DNA of 12,747 nucleotides from a virus (Duplodnaviria > Heunggongvirae > Uroviricota > Caudoviricetes). Positions 1 to 7,256 of this stretch are shown piece after piece. A program made the translations under genes and the position numbers. How positions within the stretch are numbered: the stretch's first letter is position 1; every line of letters begins with the position of its first letter. The stretch is taken from the IMG/VR virus record IMGVR_UViG_2531839474_000002; one strand, given 5' to 3'. A model generated the notes under the pieces. That model searched no databases. It was not told the DNA's origin and worked only from the letters and a program-made list of their open reading frames with translations.

Positions 1-116
1 ATTTTCTTCACAACTAACTCTTTAATCTATTAATTATATTGGCATACTCAACCACAAAACCTCCAGCAGTTTTGCCATCTTTGCTTTCCTAACAAACATC
101 CACCGGACATGACAAC

Positions 117-142
117 AAAAACCGGAGCCGGACTCCGGTTTT
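117..142 (-). terminator. Rho-independent, potentially bidirectional terminator at the end of the tail fibre gene cluster
   Basis: Stem CCGGAG (122..127) pairs with CTCCGG (133..138) around a 5-nt loop, flanked by an A-run (117..121) and a T-run (139..142). On the minus strand the hairpin is followed by TTTTTGTTGTC, 15 nt after the small-ORF stop. Confidence 0.65.
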
Positions 143-156
143 GTGAAGCTGTCGGG

Positions 157-426
157 TTACTTCATCCCGCCAATATTTTCCCACGTCCCGTCAGCACGCA
201 GGATTTGCAGCGGTCTTACCACACACTGTATCTGCTTTTTATCCGCATCCAGTATCACCACCTGCGTGATTACCCTGGCCTGCTCCGGAATAATACCATT
301 CTCATCTGACTCCAGAATGTCTGCCGGCCCCAGACGCAGTTGTGCTGTAAGCGACTGCACGTGTTCACGGCCATCATGCTTTCCGCAACCACACAGACAC
401 TGCATAAGTTTTTTTAGTATATTCAT
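157..426 (-). CDS. Hypothetical small protein (89 aa) translationally coupled to stf; function unknown, possibly a fibre-associated chaperone or accessory protein
   Basis: ATG at 426 is preceded by a strong AGGAGA ribosome-binding site and lies 1 nt after the stf stop (TGAcATG). Its stop TAA at 159..157 is followed by a terminator hairpin. Protein MNILKKLMQCLCGCGKHDGREHVQSLTAQ... has an N-terminal Cys/His cluster (C-x-C-x-C-x2-H-x4-H). It does not resemble the lambda Tfa sequence as I recall it. The ORF-track start 44 codons upstream overlaps stf and is rejected. Confidence 0.6.
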   Translation of the reverse strand: MNILKKLMQCLCGCGKHDGREHVQSLTAQLRLGPADILESDENGIIPEQARVITQVVILDADKKQIQCVVRPLQILRADGTWENIGGMK

Positions 427-427
427 G

Positions 428-1741
428 TCATTCTCCTGTTCTGCCTGTATCACTGCCCACTTCATCCAGCCCCTTAACATCCTGCCACGGCCCGTCACCA
501 AACCTGACCTGCAAATGCCGAAAAAACCCCTGAACCCGTGTGGCATCTTTGGGGTCAAGAAAGGTCAGTCCGGTGATGAGCGCACCATCTGTACCCGGGA
601 ACCAGCCATTGCTGTTTGTCTCAATAATGCTCCCCGGCCCCAGACGAAAACGGATTTGTGTCTCCCCCGGGTCGCCCTTCGGTCCCTGAGGTCCGGTTGC
701 CCCCACCGGGCCAGCCGCACCTGTTTCTCCTTTCGGTCCCTGTGGGCCTGCCGGGCCTGCCGCACCGGTATCTCCCTTTGGACCCTGTGGACCTGCACTT
801 CCCGTCAGACCGGTCTCTCCCCGCTCTCCCATGTCACCTTTCGGCCCCTGCGGGCCTGCCGGACCAGCATCACCTGCCGGTCCCCGTTCGCCGGTTGCCC
901 CGACAGGGCCGGTGTCACCGCGCTCTCCCTTATCACCCTTCGGCCCCTGAGGACCCGCGGGCCCCTGTTCCCCCTTTGGCCCGGGAGGTCCCACCACGGT
1001 GGGGATTCGGTTTACGGCCTCTTCCGCCGCTATCCTGCTTTGTTCCGCTGACTGTGCGCTTTCTGCTGACTCCCGGGCTTTTTCTGTTGCGGTCGTTGCA
1101 TCCCTGGCTGCATTACCGGCTGCACTTTCTGCCGTCTTTCTTGACAATTCAGCATCTGCTGCACTTTGTGATGACTCACTGGCTTTTTGAGCGGCCGCAG
1201 AGGCCGAGGACGAGGACGCATCCTCTGACTGCTTTGCTGAGGCTGCACTTTCTGCCGCCTGCCGGGCTGACTCCGATGCCTCCCCTGCTGAAGTGTCAGC
1301 ATTTGCAGCGCTCTCTTCTGCCTGACTGGCTGATATGCCGGCATTCCTCGCTGACGTCTCCGCCTCTCCGGCATTCTTCTTCGCCTCCTCAGCGTGACGC
1401 GCCACCTCTTCCACCATCAGTTCAAAACGACGCAGTGCCTCCGGCCGGACATCATCCTCCGACATGGCACCGAGAAAATCATTCAGCGTACCCGGCTGAG
1501 AATCTTCATACACGGTGATGGTCCCGGCATGTGACGGCGGGAATCCCTCCACCAACAGAATGACGCTGTACTGACCATACTCAACGTCCATTGTGTAACG
1601 CCCGGCTTCATCCGGATTTTCTGAGGCCACCGTGTTCACCACCACCGTGGTGCTGTTACGTCTGGCTTTCAGCTGGATTGTGCAGTTCTGTACCGGTTTT
1701 CCTGTGCCGTCTTTCAGTACACCTGAAATCTTTACTGCCAT
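428..1741 (-). CDS. stf: Side tail fibre protein (437 aa): lambda Stf-type N-terminal anchor, Ala/Ser/Glu-rich helical region, collagen-like Gly-X-Y domain, short C-terminal domain
   Basis: ATG at 1741 preceded by GGGGTGA; the ORF-track start is an upstream GTG. The N-terminus MAVKISGVLKDGTGKPVQNCTIQLKARRNSTTVVVNTV... matches the recalled lambda Stf N-terminus. Residues ~112-250 are low-complexity A/S/E/Q (likely coiled coil). Residues ~253-362 form about 36 uninterrupted Gly-X-Y triplets (GPPGPKGEQGPAGPQGPKGD...). The last 77 aa are unrelated to lambda Stf. Confidence 0.9.
   Translation of the reverse strand: MAVKISGVLKDGTGKPVQNCTIQLKARRNSTTVVVNTVASENPDEAGRYTMDVEYGQYSVILLVEGFPPSHAGTITVYEDSQPGTLNDFLGAMSEDDVRPEALRRFELMVEEVARHAEEAKKNAGEAETSARNAGISASQAEESAANADTSAGEASESARQAAESAASAKQSEDASSSSASAAAQKASESSQSAADAELSRKTAESAAGNAARDATTATEKARESAESAQSAEQSRIAAEEAVNRIPTVVGPPGPKGEQGPAGPQGPKGDKGERGDTGPVGATGERGPAGDAGPAGPQGPKGDMGERGETGLTGSAGPQGPKGDTGAAGPAGPQGPKGETGAAGPVGATGPQGPKGDPGETQIRFRLGPGSIIETNSNGWFPGTDGALITGLTFLDPKDATRVQGFFRHLQVRFGDGPWQDVKGLDEVGSDTGRTGE
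662..991 (-). repeat. Collagen-like Gly-X-Y coding repeat (about 36 triplets, 9-nt periodicity at the DNA level)
   Basis: Near-identical DNA units recur in phase, for example tcggtccctgtgggcctgccgggcctgcc around 750-780, tcggcccctgcgggcctgccggacc around 840-865 and tcggcccctgaggacccgcgggcc around 940-965. This is coding repeat within stf, not a CRISPR array. Confidence 0.9.
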
Positions 1742-1749
1742 ATTCACCC

Positions 1750-1800: not shown

Positions 1801-2400
1801 TCAGAATTTATAACCGACACCAACGATAAAACCGTCAGTGCGCCAGTCACCGCTGCCGGAGCCTTCATAAGCGACATCAACGGACACAGATTCGGTCGGG
1901 TTAAACTGCACGCCAGCTCCCCACGCCAGAGACGTGTTGCTGTGGCGACCGTCATCACTTCCGGTCAGCACATCGTGCGTTTTCCCCTTGTTGTCAGTTA
2001 CGCGGAGATAATCCCCGGAAAAAGCCGACACACGGCTGTAAGCCACACCCGCCATCGCATACGTGCTGAACCATTCATTCACGCGCACAGATGGCCCCGC
2101 CATCACGCTGAACCAGCGGTTACGCACAGAATCTTCATGCCAGCGGGTATCGCTGTAACGGGTCAGCTGGCGATTCCTGTCTCCTGCATAGCTGAATGAC
2201 GTCACCACCCCCAGTGTGTCCGTAAACTCATAACGGTATTTCACGTTAATCCCGTTCAGATCATCGCTGCCGGGAACGTTCGTCGGGGCATGAAGATACC
2301 CCGCGCTCAGCGTGGACTGATGTTCAGACGCCCATGCAGGCGCACCGGATACGGCCAGACAAATGGCTGCGGACAAAATGGCTGCACAAACTTTACGCAT
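1801..2400 (-). CDS. lom: Lom outer-membrane protein (Ail/PagC/OmpX-family beta-barrel), 199 aa, a lysogenic-conversion moron
   Basis: MRKVCAAILSAAICLAVSGAPAWASE (signal peptide) ... VDVAYEGSGSGDWRTDGFIVGVGYKF, with the C-terminal aromatic residue typical of outer-membrane barrels. Homologous to recalled lambda Lom and in the same position after J. ATG at 2400 preceded by GAGAGG. Confidence 0.95.
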   Translation of the reverse strand: MRKVCAAILSAAICLAVSGAPAWASEHQSTLSAGYLHAPTNVPGSDDLNGINVKYRYEFTDTLGVVTSFSYAGDRNRQLTRYSDTRWHEDSVRNRWFSVMAGPSVRVNEWFSTYAMAGVAYSRVSAFSGDYLRVTDNKGKTHDVLTGSDDGRHSNTSLAWGAGVQFNPTESVSVDVAYEGSGSGDWRTDGFIVGVGYKF

Positions 2401-2469: not shown

Positions 2470-5400
2470 TCAACGAATACTGATGCCGGAAGCGGCTTTT
2501 TTGGTCACAATCACCGTACAGTCGGTGATATTGCCTGCCCCCTGATTCCCTTTCTGGAAAATCTTAAACTCCAGAGTGACGCTTCCCCTGCCACTCGGCA
2601 TATCAATAACCGCACTGTAGCTACCGGGAATGGCCCCTTTAGTTTCTCTGGATGCGATTAATACGCCGTTTTTGCGAACTTCAAAACCATAACCCGTGTA
2701 TCGCGTGCCTCCGGGGTTATTTCCGCTCCCCGGATCGGCATACGCTATACCGTTAAAAATAATGGGCGGAATAATAATCTGACGGTCAAAGTTATGATCA
2801 TCGCTGATGGTGACTGTAACCGTACCGTCTGGTGTTTCCGTGTTACCCCACGTACCGACTTTTTTCGGGAAGGCTTTTGATACAGCTTTAACGAAATCCC
2901 CTCTGACCTGGGTCGCCTCCAGCATGCCCTTAATCGTACAGTTCTGGTTAATCGTGACATTGTTGAGCGTCCCGGAGTTCGCATTCACGTTACCGCTGAT
3001 ATCAGCGTTTTTCGCCGTCAGCCGCCCGTCCGGTGTCAGGGAAAATGCCGGTGGATTGCCGCCGCTGGTGATGGTCGGGGCCGTCAGGCGCTTCAGGAAC
3101 ACGTCGTTCATGAATATCTGATCGCCCTGACCAACAAACATTGGTCGTGTGTTGCCATTAGACGGATCAATAAACGCAATACGGTTAGCGGCAACCAGAA
3201 ACTGGCTCAGCTTGCCTTCCGGCGTGTCCTCCATACTGAGGCCAATACCCGCGACATAATGTTTGCCGTCTTTGGTCTGCTCAATTTTGACAGCCCACAT
3301 GGCATTCCATTTATCGTTGACATCCTTCCACTCTTTCGAAAACTCCTCCAGTTTGCTGGCGTTATCCTCCGTCAGCTCGACTTTTTCCAGCAGCTCCTTG
3401 CCGAGATGAGATTCGGTTATCTTGCCTTTGAAAAAATCCAGGTAACCTTCCGCATCATCGCTCGCCCGACCGACGGCCTCCACGAACACCGATTTGCCAA
3501 CGGTGTTCACACTGCGAACGTAAAAATAATAATCATGGCCCGGTTTGATATTGATACTGGCGGCTATCCAGTACATCCCCGTACCAAGATAGCGGGCTGT
3601 GGTTTCAACCTGCCGGATATCGGCAATCCGCTTTTCCGAAAACCAGAACTCAAACTGTACCGTCGGGTCATAAACCGCAAGATGCGGCGTGGCGGTTATC
3701 TGAAAATAGCCCGGCGTCAGCTCAATCTGTGACGGCGCTGCCGGTGCGGCAATCCTGAACGATACCGACGCCGGGTCACCCTGCTGTCCCCACGCATTTA
3801 CCGCCCGGACTGTCAGCCTGTAGTTCCCCGGCGCCAGTTGCCTGAAACGATATTCGGTTTCCGTCGTCCGGGCCGTGCTGACCAGCCGCTCACTGCCGTC
3901 GTCTGCTGCCACAGTCAGACGAAGCATAAAGCTCACCCCCTTCACCACCTTCGGCGTGTCCCAGCGCGCCAGCACCTGATATTCCCCGCTGTCTGCCGAG
4001 ACTTCGGCGGTCAGGTGCTGCACCGCTGGCGGCGTGACACCATTCACCGTGCCGCTCTGGTCGCCGTCAAAGTGCGCACCGTTATCCACGATAGCCTCTT
4101 TTTCAGGCACATGCTGCACGGCAGTGACAGCGTACGTGCCGTCGTCGTTCTCACGGATACTCACGCAGCGGAACAGGCGCTGGCGCAGCGTCGGCAGCTT
4201 CAGCCCCCACACGCTGTATCCGGCAACGCCGTCAGGAACCCGGCTCACTTTCACCTGCACGCCGTCGGTGACGGACTGGACCTCCACGCTGACCGGACTC
4301 CCCGTCCCGTCGACCAGGCTTATCAGTGTGGTGCCGGAGGCTGGCAGCGTGATTTCACGGTCGAGCGTCAGCGTCCGGGTCTGGCTGTTCACCGCCAGCA
4401 CGCGACCACCGATGCTGATACCCGCATAGTCATCATCGCAGATTTCAATGACGTCTCCCGGCACATGGCGAAGCCCTTCTACACCCACGCTGAAGTCCAC
4501 GGTCTGCGTTTCCAGCAGTTCCGTTTTAATCAGCCACAGCCCGGCGCGGTGCGCCTGCCCCCGGCTGGTACAGCCAAAGGCATCCATCTTCGTGACGTTA
4601 CGACCGTAACGGGCAATGGCCTGCGTGTCTTCAACCAGCTCTGTCGCCGTCTCCCAGCCGTTGTCCGGGTCAATCCAGTTCACCTCAACGGCGTTATGGC
4701 GGTCCTTCAGGGCGCTGAAGCTGTAGCGGAACGGCGCGCCATCATCCGGCATCACCACATTACTGCGGTTATAGGTCCACACCTTATCCGACGGTCGGTC
4801 CTGCACGAACGTCAGCGTCTGCCCGTTCCATACCGGCATACAGCGCATCGCCGAGCAGAAATCACTGAGCACATCCCACGCCTTGCGCTGTGTGGTCAGG
4901 TACGCATTACAGGTGATGCGCGGCTCCGTGCCGCCAAAACCGTCCGGCACCGACTGATCGCAGTACTGGCCGATGACATACAGCGCCCATTTGTCCACAT
5001 CCGCCGCACCGAGACGCTTCCCCATGCCGTAGCGCGGATGGGTCAGCATATCCCACAGACACCAGGCCATATTGTTGCTGTATGCTGGCTTAAACGTTCC
5101 GTCCCAGATACCGCTGTATTGCCGCGTCTGCGGGTTATAGTTCGACGGCACCTGCAGAATGCGCCCGCGAAGATGATAATTACGGCTCACCTGCTGACTG
5201 CCGAACTGTTCCGAGTCCACCTGCACGCCGACCAGTGCCGTGTTCGGGTAGCACTGTTGCACATCGATGATTTCGGTGTATGACGACCAGAGCGTTTTGT
5301 TCTGCAGCTGGTCTGTGGTGCTGTCCGGCGTCATCCTGCGCATCCGGATATTAAACGGGCGCGGCGGCAGGTTACCCACCACCACCGAGGCCAGATACTG

Positions 5401-5883
5401 CGAGGTGGTTTTGCCCTTAATGGTGATGTCTTTTTCCGTCACCCAGCCACCATTACGTTGTATCTGAACCAGCAGGCGGACTTCCGACGGATTCCGGTCC
5501 CCCTTTGAAGTGGTTTCCACCAGTGCCTGCACACCGAAGGTAAAGCGCAGACGGTCGATGTTTGCCGATGTGATGGTCCGGGTAATCGGCGTGTCGTACT
5601 TCACCTCCGTACCCAGCACCGTCTCGGAGCCGGAGGATTCAAATCCCTCCGGCGGTGTCTGCTCCTGCTCACCTGCCCGGAACACCACCGTGACACCGGA
5701 GATATTGGTATTCCCCTCACTGTCCAGCACTGGCGTACTGTTCAGCAGCACACTTTTTAATCCATCCACCGGACCTTCAATCGGCCCTTCACTGATGGCG
5801 TCTATCACGCTCAGCAGCTGGGATGATTTCAGGTTGTCCTTCGCTTCGCGCGGGGTATGCCCCTTACTGCTGCCTTTACCCAT
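2470..5883 (-). CDS. J: Central tail fibre / host specificity protein J (1137 aa), with a divergent C-terminal receptor-binding region
   Basis: ATG at 5883 preceded by GAGAGGA, giving [34 protein letters not shown].... The first ~985 aa match recalled lambda gpJ closely; the last ~150 aa differ substantially although a few motifs remain (DMPSGRGSV, the terminal KK..GIS). The ORF-track start 15 codons upstream is rejected. Stop TGA at 2472..2470. Confidence 0.95.
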
Positions 5884-5904
5884 TCCTCTCGCTCCAGAAA
5901 CGAC

Positions 5905-5925
5905 AAAACCGCCCTGAGGCGGTTT
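5905..5925 (-). other. Stem-loop in the I-J intergenic spacer (AAAACCGCC CTGA GGCGGTTTT, plus-strand text)
   Basis: Perfect 5-bp GC stem (5909..5913 pairs with 5918..5922) flanked by an A-run and a T-run, inside the 60-nt spacer between the I stop and the J start. Function unknown. Confidence 0.3.
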
Positions 5926-5943
5926 CACATAAAACGTTTTTCA

Positions 5944-6615: not shown

Positions 6616-7256
6616 TTGTCGGTATACCTCTCTCGTTTGCTCAGTTGTTCAGGAATATGGTGCAGCAGCTCGCCGTCACCACAGTAAATGGCGGCATGAT
6701 TCGGCACCGATGAACCAAAACAGCACAGCAGCACATCGCCCGGCTGCGCCGCTGACAACGGCACCTGATACAGCCCTGTGGCCTCCAGATTATCCAGATA
6801 GAGATTCTGACCGTTACGCCACCAGTCATCCTCGCGGTGAAAATCCGGCATCTCAATCCCCGCCAGATGGTAAGCATCCCGGAACAGCGTGTAACAGTCC
6901 GTCACCCCGTGCTCAAAGCGCCGCCCGGTAAGATGCGGCACACAGCGGAACTTGTGAATCGCCCCCCGGCAGACCAGCCACCACGGCAAATCACTCTGCA
7001 CCTGCAGCCGCCGGTCGGCCTCACTCAGCCAGGGCAGACCACCGGGGTGGCTGTGGACCAGCGCCACAATCTCACCCTGCATCTCTGCCTGCAGCCAGTC
7101 CTCCGGCGACATACGGAAATACGCCTCCGGCTCACCGGAAATATTCACGCCGGGAAAATATCTTTCCCCCTCCGGCGTTCTCACCACGAAGCCGCACGAC
7201 TCCGCTGGCGCACATCGCCGGGCGTGCGCCAGAATCGCTGATTCTGTCTTTGTCAT
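6513..7256 (-). CDS. K: Tail tip assembly protein K, long form (247 aa), with an N-terminal JAB/MPN (JAMM) domain and a C-terminal NlpC/P60-like domain
   Basis: ATG at 7256 lies 5 nt after the L stop. The JAMM signature H-x-H-x7-S-x2-D is present as HSHPGGLPWLSEAD, with a candidate catalytic Glu in AESCGFVV. The C-terminal half has Cys/His residues compatible with a papain-like NlpC/P60 fold. The canonical lambda K annotation (199 aa, as I recall) would correspond to an internal ATG at 7112. The 3' end overlaps I by about 100 nt, as in lambda. Confidence 0.85.
   Translation of the reverse strand: MTKTESAILAHARRCAPAESCGFVVRTPEGERYFPGVNISGEPEAYFRMSPEDWLQAEMQGEIVALVHSHPGGLPWLSEADRRLQVQSDLPWWLVCRGAIHKFRCVPHLTGRRFEHGVTDCYTLFRDAYHLAGIEMPDFHREDDWWRNGQNLYLDNLEATGLYQVPLSAAQPGDVLLCCFGSSVPNHAAIYCGDGELLHHIPEQLSKRERYTDKWQRRTHSLWRHRAWHASAFTGICNDLAAASTFV

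Follow-up and report, generated by a model that had tools for sequence, protein, structure and literature searches.

Introduction

Collagen-like side tail fibres sit on Shiga toxin (Stx)-converting, effector-carrying prophages that lie behind the pathogenicity of enterohaemorrhagic and enteropathogenic Escherichia coli (EHEC and EPEC), and the binding target of their tips is unsettled. Here, we consider a small open reading frame (ORF), referred to as sPfC, that directly follows such a fibre gene in the window, i.e., the whole stretch of 12,747 nucleotides of the Caudoviricetes record IMGVR_UViG_2531839474_000002 in IMG/VR. When expressed by itself in a laboratory strain of E. coli, the fibre EPclA forms a dumbbell-shaped trimer, and the isolated C-terminal domain of the fibre, PfC (7.2 kDa), was a trimer by size-exclusion chromatography with multi-angle laser light scattering, renucleated the collagen helix after heating, and forms a knob approximately 7 nm across (Ghosh et al. 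2012, PMC3368898). The small ORF is not mentioned in that study.

Three phages carry named orthologues. Mondal et al. (2016, PMC5155283) made in-frame deletions across the Stx2 phage Sp5; the fibre gene ORF67 is essential, its deletion abolishing infection, and ORF68, the sPfC orthologue, is listed among the non-essential late genes and is suggested to be an "intragenomic reservoir sequence". A 2026 preprint on the cryo-electron microscopy and proteomics of phi24B (10.64898/2026.04.10.717836) leaves the gene undiscussed in its text and argues, on indirect grounds, that the fibre C-terminal domain is not the BamA binder. The RefSeq record of the Stx1 phage AU6Stx1 (NC_049921) names the orthologue atfT, a +1-frameshift tip, and predicts a slippery sequence and a pseudoknot. 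Sp5 ORF68 (from E. coli O157:H7 Sakai), phi24B 'gp59' and AU6Stx1 'atfT' are all 89 aa long and 90–99% identical to the window's sPfC, and they share its site after the collagen-like fibre gene and its junction, AGGAGAATGACATG. The window allele differs from them in carrying Cys rather than Arg at residue 10 and in belonging to a lambda-like siphovirus tail module, not that of a podovirus.

Two further systems offer a comparison. Lambda Tfa (Caudo_TAP), like sPfC, is placed after the side tail fibre gene and co-expressed with the fibre; in the case of sPfC, unlike Tfa, the fibre folds without it, and the orthologue is reported as dispensable in Sp5 (PMC3368898, PMC5155283). sPfC also differs from Tfa in having half its length and no sequence relationship to it. 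In Mu and P1, alternative fibre C-termini are encoded on invertible G/C segments, and the likeness lies in a second copy of the distal part of the fibre being encoded just downstream of the first; unlike those tips, sPfC is read from a start codon of its own and, being essentially invariant, does not supply an alternative specificity. In the tail-fibre region of the window, neither an invertase gene nor an invertible segment was recognised, although inverted repeats were not searched for. As a tip paralogue found in every phage with such fibres and more conserved than the tip itself, sPfC is a candidate for work on host range and the spread of toxin genes, and its function is experimentally tractable.

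sPfC is a free-standing paralogue of the fibre tip domain

The earlier note on this DNA, made without database searches, had called the gene product unassigned and, of everything in the window, the most likely to be genuinely uncharacterised. Homology searches contradicted the label of unassigned. Residues 28–89 of sPfC correspond to the complete PF06820 (Phage_fiber_C, "PfC") model (positions 1–64; 119.4 bits against a cutoff of 25, E = 8.6e-35), and residues 29–88 align with residues 366–427 of the adjacent fibre protein (35% identity, E = 5e-11, BLASTP), whose domain order in Pfam is PF08400 (N-terminal domain), collagen repeats and PF06820. The protein also matches PHROG 576 over positions 1–89 of the 89-position profile (E = 5e-59), and its RefSeq orthologue, WP_001101707.1, is named "phage tail fiber C-terminal domain-containing protein". 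With a full-length match and a site after a PfC-ended fibre gene, sPfC falls within the stand-alone 89-aa family of PHROG 576 and RefSeq; it does not fit the description of PF06820 as the C-terminus of a tail fibre protein, the domain here being the body of an 89-aa protein with its own start.

sPfC is a free-standing paralogue of the fibre's own tip (PfC) domain. It shares the PF06820 family, by full-length model match, with the PfC of EPclA and EPclB (PMC3368898), but it is free-standing, with a 27-residue basic leader in place of the collagen shaft. Compared with the fibre PfC, to which it is 35% identical, it carries an extra cysteine (Cys68) and evolves approximately three times more slowly. 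Orthologues have also been noticed before: Sp5 ORF68 has been tested by deletion, and phi24B peptides have been detected by mass spectrometry. The gene family is already known and annotated, and it is not a new kind of gene. Pfam returned PF06820 alone at E ≤ 1, with no Tfa/Caudo_TAP family, which bears out the earlier observation that the product does not resemble lambda Tfa. NCBIfam (E ≤ 1) and PADLOC gave no match to sPfC, and neither did a sequence search of the PDB.

Conservation and selection

We compared 86 E. coli-type loci: 80 contigs from IMG/VR, two genome contigs, three phages and an E. coli chromosome. Those from IMG/VR were the top 80 of 283 when ranked by protein identity, a choice that selects for intactness and biases the ratio of nonsynonymous to synonymous substitution rates (dN/dS) of sPfC downward. 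The 89-codon ORF was intact in all 86 loci, and half of its variable sites (26 of 52) lay at third codon positions. Subject to that bias, dN/dS was 0.12–0.13 for the whole ORF (0.13 over 57 distinct alleles), 0.075 for its PfC part and 0.28–0.30 for the 27-residue leader, whereas the PfC of the fibre gave 0.25 across these loci. Purifying selection is stronger on the sPfC domain than on the tip that the fibre itself carries.

Comparison between species gave the same ranking independently of dN/dS. The small proteins of E. coli and Salmonella share 65% identity and their fibre PfCs 39%, with cross-comparisons at 30–38%; these values indicate that the duplication predates the split of the two genera and that both copies have been retained, and that sPfC evolves more slowly than the fibre tip. 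Neither a lack of conservation nor frequent frameshifts, which the earlier note had named as grounds for abandoning the gene, was seen among these identity-selected loci (ORF intact in 86/86, dN/dS 0.12–0.13). sPfC is a genuine protein-coding late gene, and it is almost certainly a separately encoded, conserved and translated knob paralogue that always accompanies a PfC-ended fibre.

Start signals and expression

Read on the minus strand of the window, sPfC starts with the ATG at 426..424 and stops with the TAA at 159..157 after 89 codons, and its product reads MNILKKLMQCLCGCGKHDGREHVQSL...GGMK. The Shine-Dalgarno (SD) sequence AGGAGA lies 5 nt before the ATG, inside the final codons of the fibre gene, whose TGA stop (430..428) is separated from the ATG by a single base (427). 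Downstream, an 11-bp hairpin is followed by UUUUUGUUGU (−25.8 kcal/mol, z = −3.15 by folding). The ribosome-binding site, the 1-nt gap and the terminator that had been reported from the letters of the sequence were all present at their places. The hairpin recurs at related loci, with altered stem bases in the Salmonella version. A simple terminator scan of the window did not report it, probably because the A/U ends of the stem take up part of the T tract. A promoter scan of the window located no promoter of its own for sPfC on its strand. An ATG further upstream, giving a 102-aa product (MKWAVIQ...), was rejected as a conserved start, Salmonella having stop codons there.

The SD-ATG junction was kept in 82 of 84 loci, as AGGAGAATGACATG in 80 and AGGAGAGTGACATG in 2. 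In the two exceptions, L033 and L059 (348–2963), an IS66-family element with three ORFs sits precisely at the boundary of the fibre stop codon and sPfC, which removes the SD and leaves the sPfC ORF intact. Synonymous diversity in the final 13 fibre codons was 0.03, compared with 0.10–0.14 in the rest of the domain, as expected if these bases double as the ribosome-binding site. The Salmonella fibre (468 aa) contains no collagen and consists of PfN, an Ala/Ser-rich coil, Phage_fiber_2 and PfC; the small PfC ORF there (79 aa) has AGGAGG with a 6-nt spacer before its ATG, shares 14 or 23 nt with the end of the fibre gene and has a hairpin terminator behind it, and at both Salmonella loci examined its frame contains a stop codon 2 or 6 codons upstream of the ATG. 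In Citrobacter rodentium, the junction reads AGGAGG-ATGAT-ATG, the fibre gene is a stop-ridden remnant, and sPfC has lost its original start by a 1-nt deletion in an A run and carries a 4-codon deletion. The retention of a start signal across these differing junctions points to independent, probably coupled, initiation of sPfC, and the joint decay of fibre and sPfC in C. rodentium, a single example, fits a phage-linked rather than a host-benefit role.

Evidence for the protein comes from the phi24B preprint, whose virion peptide table, in the part of the supplement examined, lists VITQVVILDADKK and ADGTWENIGGMK (10.64898/2026.04.10.717836). Both are exact matches within the window's ORF. They are assigned there to "Fusion_6159_FS1 ... 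39891_to_40295 ... gp59_start" (10.64898/2026.04.10.717836), and the same part of the supplement contains no N-terminal or junction peptide of sPfC. In the second-lowest gel slice (EA1829), 25 spectra belong to the fusion entry and 24 to the fibre, which is a weak hint of a free small protein. By these data, the sPfC protein is made and is present at a low level in the purified phi24B virion sample.

The atfT annotation implies another route, in which programmed +1 slippage of the ribosome or RNA polymerase near the fibre end would add sPfC to the fibre or re-tip it. sPfC does lie in the +1 frame of the fibre in both E. coli and Salmonella, and in most loci no stop codon interrupts that frame over the 46 codons ahead of the sPfC ATG (in the window, it is open from 558 to the ATG). 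The open stretch contains a G3T7 run (G4T6 in the window, 530..521, codons QGFF), which is our own guess at the slippery site predicted, together with a pseudoknot, in NC_049921; natural 1-nt deletions generate fibre-sPfC fusions, and the phi24B authors searched fusion entries and could not separate fusion from free protein. In 52 of 86 loci, however, the T run is no longer than T3; the fibre variant D427N stops the alternative frame 13 codons before the ATG in 12 of 87, and the Salmonella stop 2 or 6 codons ahead of the ATG closes it. As judged from the sequence of the fibre end, GAA UGA C, the P-site tRNA would be unable to re-pair at +1, and a slip at the T run would split the fibre's own PfC in half. 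No frameshift signal was found by Mondal et al. (PMC5155283), the examined part of the phi24B supplement holds no junction peptide, and no long fusion protein was present among the 120 homologues listed of 174 found. The conserved slippery site and consistently open frame expected of programmed +1 frameshifting are not found across the loci examined, and the unconserved T run, the closed frame in 12/87 loci and in Salmonella, and the Sp5 result together indicate that it is not a general expression route; we regard it as very unlikely to explain the gene.

Single-base deletions are a separate matter. Within the latter half of the fibre PfC, three distinct deletions of 1 nt are predicted to fuse fibre, linker and sPfC (L030, L036 and the LC727864 type); the last is shared by five Stx2a phages (represented by LC727864, 34831–36454), in which the SD is also changed from AGGAGA to AGGCGA. 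These deletions may be real variants or homopolymer sequencing errors.

Distribution and recombinant forms

The 270-nt gene occurs in 698 of 5,426 complete E. coli genomes at 6,809 places in total, with a median of 11 and a maximum of 15 copies per carrying genome, and the best place in each record has 90–99% DNA identity. In EHEC- or EPEC-type strains, almost all lambdoid prophages seem to carry one copy. In the phage collection, 296 records match sPfC, mostly Stx1- and Stx2-converting phages, together with lambda-like siphoviruses such as phi330 and cdtI. The fibre PfC likewise matches 296 records with the same organism breakdown, an equality of counts rather than of intersected accession lists. 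The pair was found on three shaft types, namely, siphovirus EPclA, podovirus EPclB and the non-collagen Salmonella fibres. Relatives of the small protein occur in E. coli, E. albertii, C. rodentium and Salmonella enterica. A publication on Gifsy-1 Stf held nothing relevant to sPfC.

A profile search of 1.84 billion representative proteins returned 85 matches, and PF06820 is accordingly a very small family. Four of the matches with multiple stretches (P0143, P0148, P0158 and P0178) are long proteins built of tandem repeats, with no relation to phage fibres, and were judged spurious; P0175 (2,696 aa) is a single-stretch match with E = 6e-5. One protein, P0142 (565 aa), has four tandem PfC-like units followed by collagen repeats and looks like a genuine relative, and from its layout PfC-like domains can be strung on one chain. 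A scan of species-representative genomes gave two loci only. One of them, a 725-bp contig labelled Xanthomonas pisi (NZ_JPLE01000138.1), carries an E. coli-type fibre end and sPfC with 92% protein identity; it is probably assembly contamination.

Several database proteins are chimeras with fragments of Lom, CII or J and junctions inside sPfC, which suggests prophage-to-prophage recombination at the conserved sPfC stretch. Such junctions are among the observations that favour the proposal of Mondal et al. (2016) that the gene is a genomic reservoir, i.e., a spare-tip DNA cassette swapped in by recombination or indel. sPfC is paralogous to the fibre tip, one protein (P0063) joins collagen repeats straight to an sPfC-type domain, and the three distinct 1-nt deletions (L030, L036, LC727864) fuse fibre to sPfC. 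A cassette, however, needs no SD, ATG or conserved leader, yet all are kept across genera, and the protein is made, as the available phi24B peptides indicate. sPfC is moreover nearly uniform (best places 90–99% identical in DNA, approximately 6,800 copies) and evolves more slowly than the fibre tip, the reverse of what a store of diversity would show and a pattern that fits a conserved partner instead. With the two domains 35% identical, homologous exchange between them is unlikely, and the fusions are rare and possibly homopolymer sequencing errors. The reservoir proposal consequently appears improbable.

Leader and Cys/His residues

The earlier note had pointed to an N-terminal Cys/His cluster that could bind a metal. 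The string C10-x-C12-x-C14-x2-H17-x4-H22 is literally present in the window's sPfC, but its ligands are not conserved among orthologues. Arg occupies position 10 in 47 of 54 alleles, and some alleles have Tyr, His or Gly at position 14 or Asn or Asp at position 22; in the Salmonella orthologues, the stretch reads HCLFGCDK or HCLSGGDK, and the His pair is missing. A conserved metal site was rejected on this variation, and the CxCxC-H-H motif is specific to the window allele. The leader pattern common to E. coli and Salmonella is M-x-I-[LF]-K-K-[LI]-x3-L-x-G with at least one Cys nearby. Cys68 is kept in the small proteins, with both TGC and TGT codons and as QIEC in Salmonella, at a position where the fibres have Gly or Ala. 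AlphaFold2 (AF2) monomer models were of low confidence (pLDDT 53 and 49, from 9- and 17-row alignments); both place a helix at residues 3–12.

The window allele also contains a lipobox-like L-C-G-C, and this, the Cys/His string and the effector cargo region that borders the gene would suit a small protein that binds metal, a lipoprotein or a 'moron' that benefits the host and has no relation to the virion. A lipoprotein reading was rejected by inspection: the residues ahead of Cys14 (13) include K5, K6, Q9 and R10 in E. coli and K5, K6, K8 and H9 in Salmonella, so R10 or K/H falls in the would-be h-region, and no hydrophobic stretch precedes the lipobox Cys. A lipoprotein signal is unlikely in a leader that, by inspection, has no hydrophobic core. 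In many draft loci, sPfC seems intact although the neighbouring fibre gene is disrupted, which would favour a moron, but that intactness is biased by the selection of loci. PADLOC and NCBIfam gave no match, the Cys and His positions vary, no promoter of its own was found on the sPfC strand, and in C. rodentium the gene decays along with the fibre. Any of these host-side functions is, in our judgement, extremely unlikely.

Proposed role at the fibre tip

We tentatively propose that sPfC is translated on its own and serves the fibre module as an accessory knob, probably a trimer, and not as a chaperone, a reading that we hold to have slightly less than an even chance of being correct. Ribosomes ending the fibre gene would re-initiate at the ATG at 426. 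The product may form a small homotrimeric knob like the isolated fibre PfC, with a short basic N-terminal helix, and would act as a non-essential accessory subunit of the fibre module. It would most likely dock on the PfC end of the fibre or its acidic C-terminal tail, which reads ...DEVGSDTGRTGE in E. coli and ...QEVSDDNIQEN or ...QEVTDDNI in Salmonella; the PfC end and acidic tail are the only element common to the three shaft types, which makes the fibre tip the simplest partner. The virion would carry sPfC sub-stoichiometrically as a second, conserved distal knob, and sPfC would be neither a folding chaperone nor a product of frameshifting.

The earlier note had named a fibre-specific chaperone or trimerisation helper first among its suggestions; a Tfa-like protein of this kind would be needed for fibre folding. 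The location of the gene where lambda has tfa, its translational coupling to the fibre gene and its strict co-occurrence with PfC-ended fibres would suit such a role. The idea nevertheless conflicts with published data: EPclA produced by itself assembles into a correct trimer, as does the isolated PfC, which can also renucleate the collagen helix (PMC3368898). In Sp5, ORF68 is listed as non-essential, while deletion of the fibre abolishes infection (PMC5155283). There is also no match to a Tfa family, Pfam giving PF06820 alone. A chaperone role is highly doubtful on these grounds.

Several points weigh against an accessory knob as well. Its trimerisation and its contact with the fibre are inferred from the properties of the fibre PfC and of the sequences, and the AF2 monomer models (pLDDT 53 and 49) are unusable for this purpose. 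The dN/dS values are biased downward by the choice of IMG/VR loci on protein identity. In the phi24B data, the protein table tags the fusion entry 'Spike or just gp59?' (10.64898/2026.04.10.717836), and each sPfC peptide has a count of 3, compared with 47 for the fibre peptide GLDEVGSDTGR, which we assume to be spectrum counts; at such low counts, the sPfC signal could stem from contamination by the lysate or from a rare fusion. ORF68 appears in the Sp5 paper as an entry among the non-essential genes (PMC5155283), and a missing phenotype in K-12 would not define its role.

A more elaborate version of the accessory knob, which we consider speculative and unlikely in its full form, treats the fibre tip as a two-component device. 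An sPfC trimer would sit end-on on the variable PfC knob with its basic leader on the acidic tail, and would be either the actual distal adhesin, directed at some conserved structure on a surface, or a fibre-stowing latch. With the +1 frame between fibre and sPfC usually open, single-base deletions in PfC could yield one sPfC-tipped fibre, which might act as a fail-safe or a crude tip switch.

Features and gene neighbourhood of the window

The features of the fibre-sPfC region are listed in Table 1. J (5928..2470) is followed by lom (2400..1801), the collagen-like fibre gene (1747..428) and sPfC, an order that parallels J, lom, stf and tfa of lambda and agrees with the tfa position assigned to the gene earlier. 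The true start of the fibre is probably the ATG at 1741 (MAVKISG..., a predicted 437 aa) rather than the listed GTG at 1747 (MNMAVKISG...), as a RefSeq homologue is 1314 nt long and P0134 begins with MAVKISG.

Table 1. Positions of the fibre-sPfC features in the 12,747-nt window
Feature	Position	Strand	Description
sPfC	157..426	minus	89 aa + stop; stand-alone PfC-domain protein
Shine-Dalgarno AGGAGA of sPfC	437..432	minus	within fibre codons GGA GAA; read directly
sPfC leader, residues 1–27	346..426	minus	basic amphipathic helix (ILKKLMQxL) + Gly/Cys/charged linker
sPfC PfC domain, residues 28–89	160..345	minus	Pfam; includes Cys68
Intrinsic-terminator-like hairpin + U tract	108..142	minus	closes fibre-sPfC unit
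Fibre gene, collagen-like side tail fibre	428..1747	minus	EPclA type (PfN, coiled coil, collagen, PfC); Pfam PF08400, PF01391, PF06820
Fibre's own PfC domain	464..655	minus	residues 365–428; paralogue of sPfC
GGGGTTTTTT homopolymer in fibre PfC	521..530	minus	codons QGFF; guessed 'slippery sequence' of AU6Stx1; natural 1-nt deletion site

The closest E. coli chromosome (97.8% identical) has the same layout, in a prophage adjoining bioA/ybhB, with the effector genes nleB2, nleC, nleH1 and nleD past sPfC. Terminator-like hairpins were also observed after lom (1758–1779) and J (2428–2451), both on the minus (coding) strand; with J, lom and the fibre-sPfC pair each bracketed by terminators, late antitermination is presumably needed. 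Two long antisense ORFs on the plus strand (143–1051, 302 aa; 658–1518, 286 aa) lie opposite the collagen repeats and sPfC and look like by-products of GC-rich Gly-X-Y coding rather than genes. In one Salmonella prophage (L089, 3193–4551), a 452-aa GDSL-lipase-like gene replaces lom between J and the fibre.

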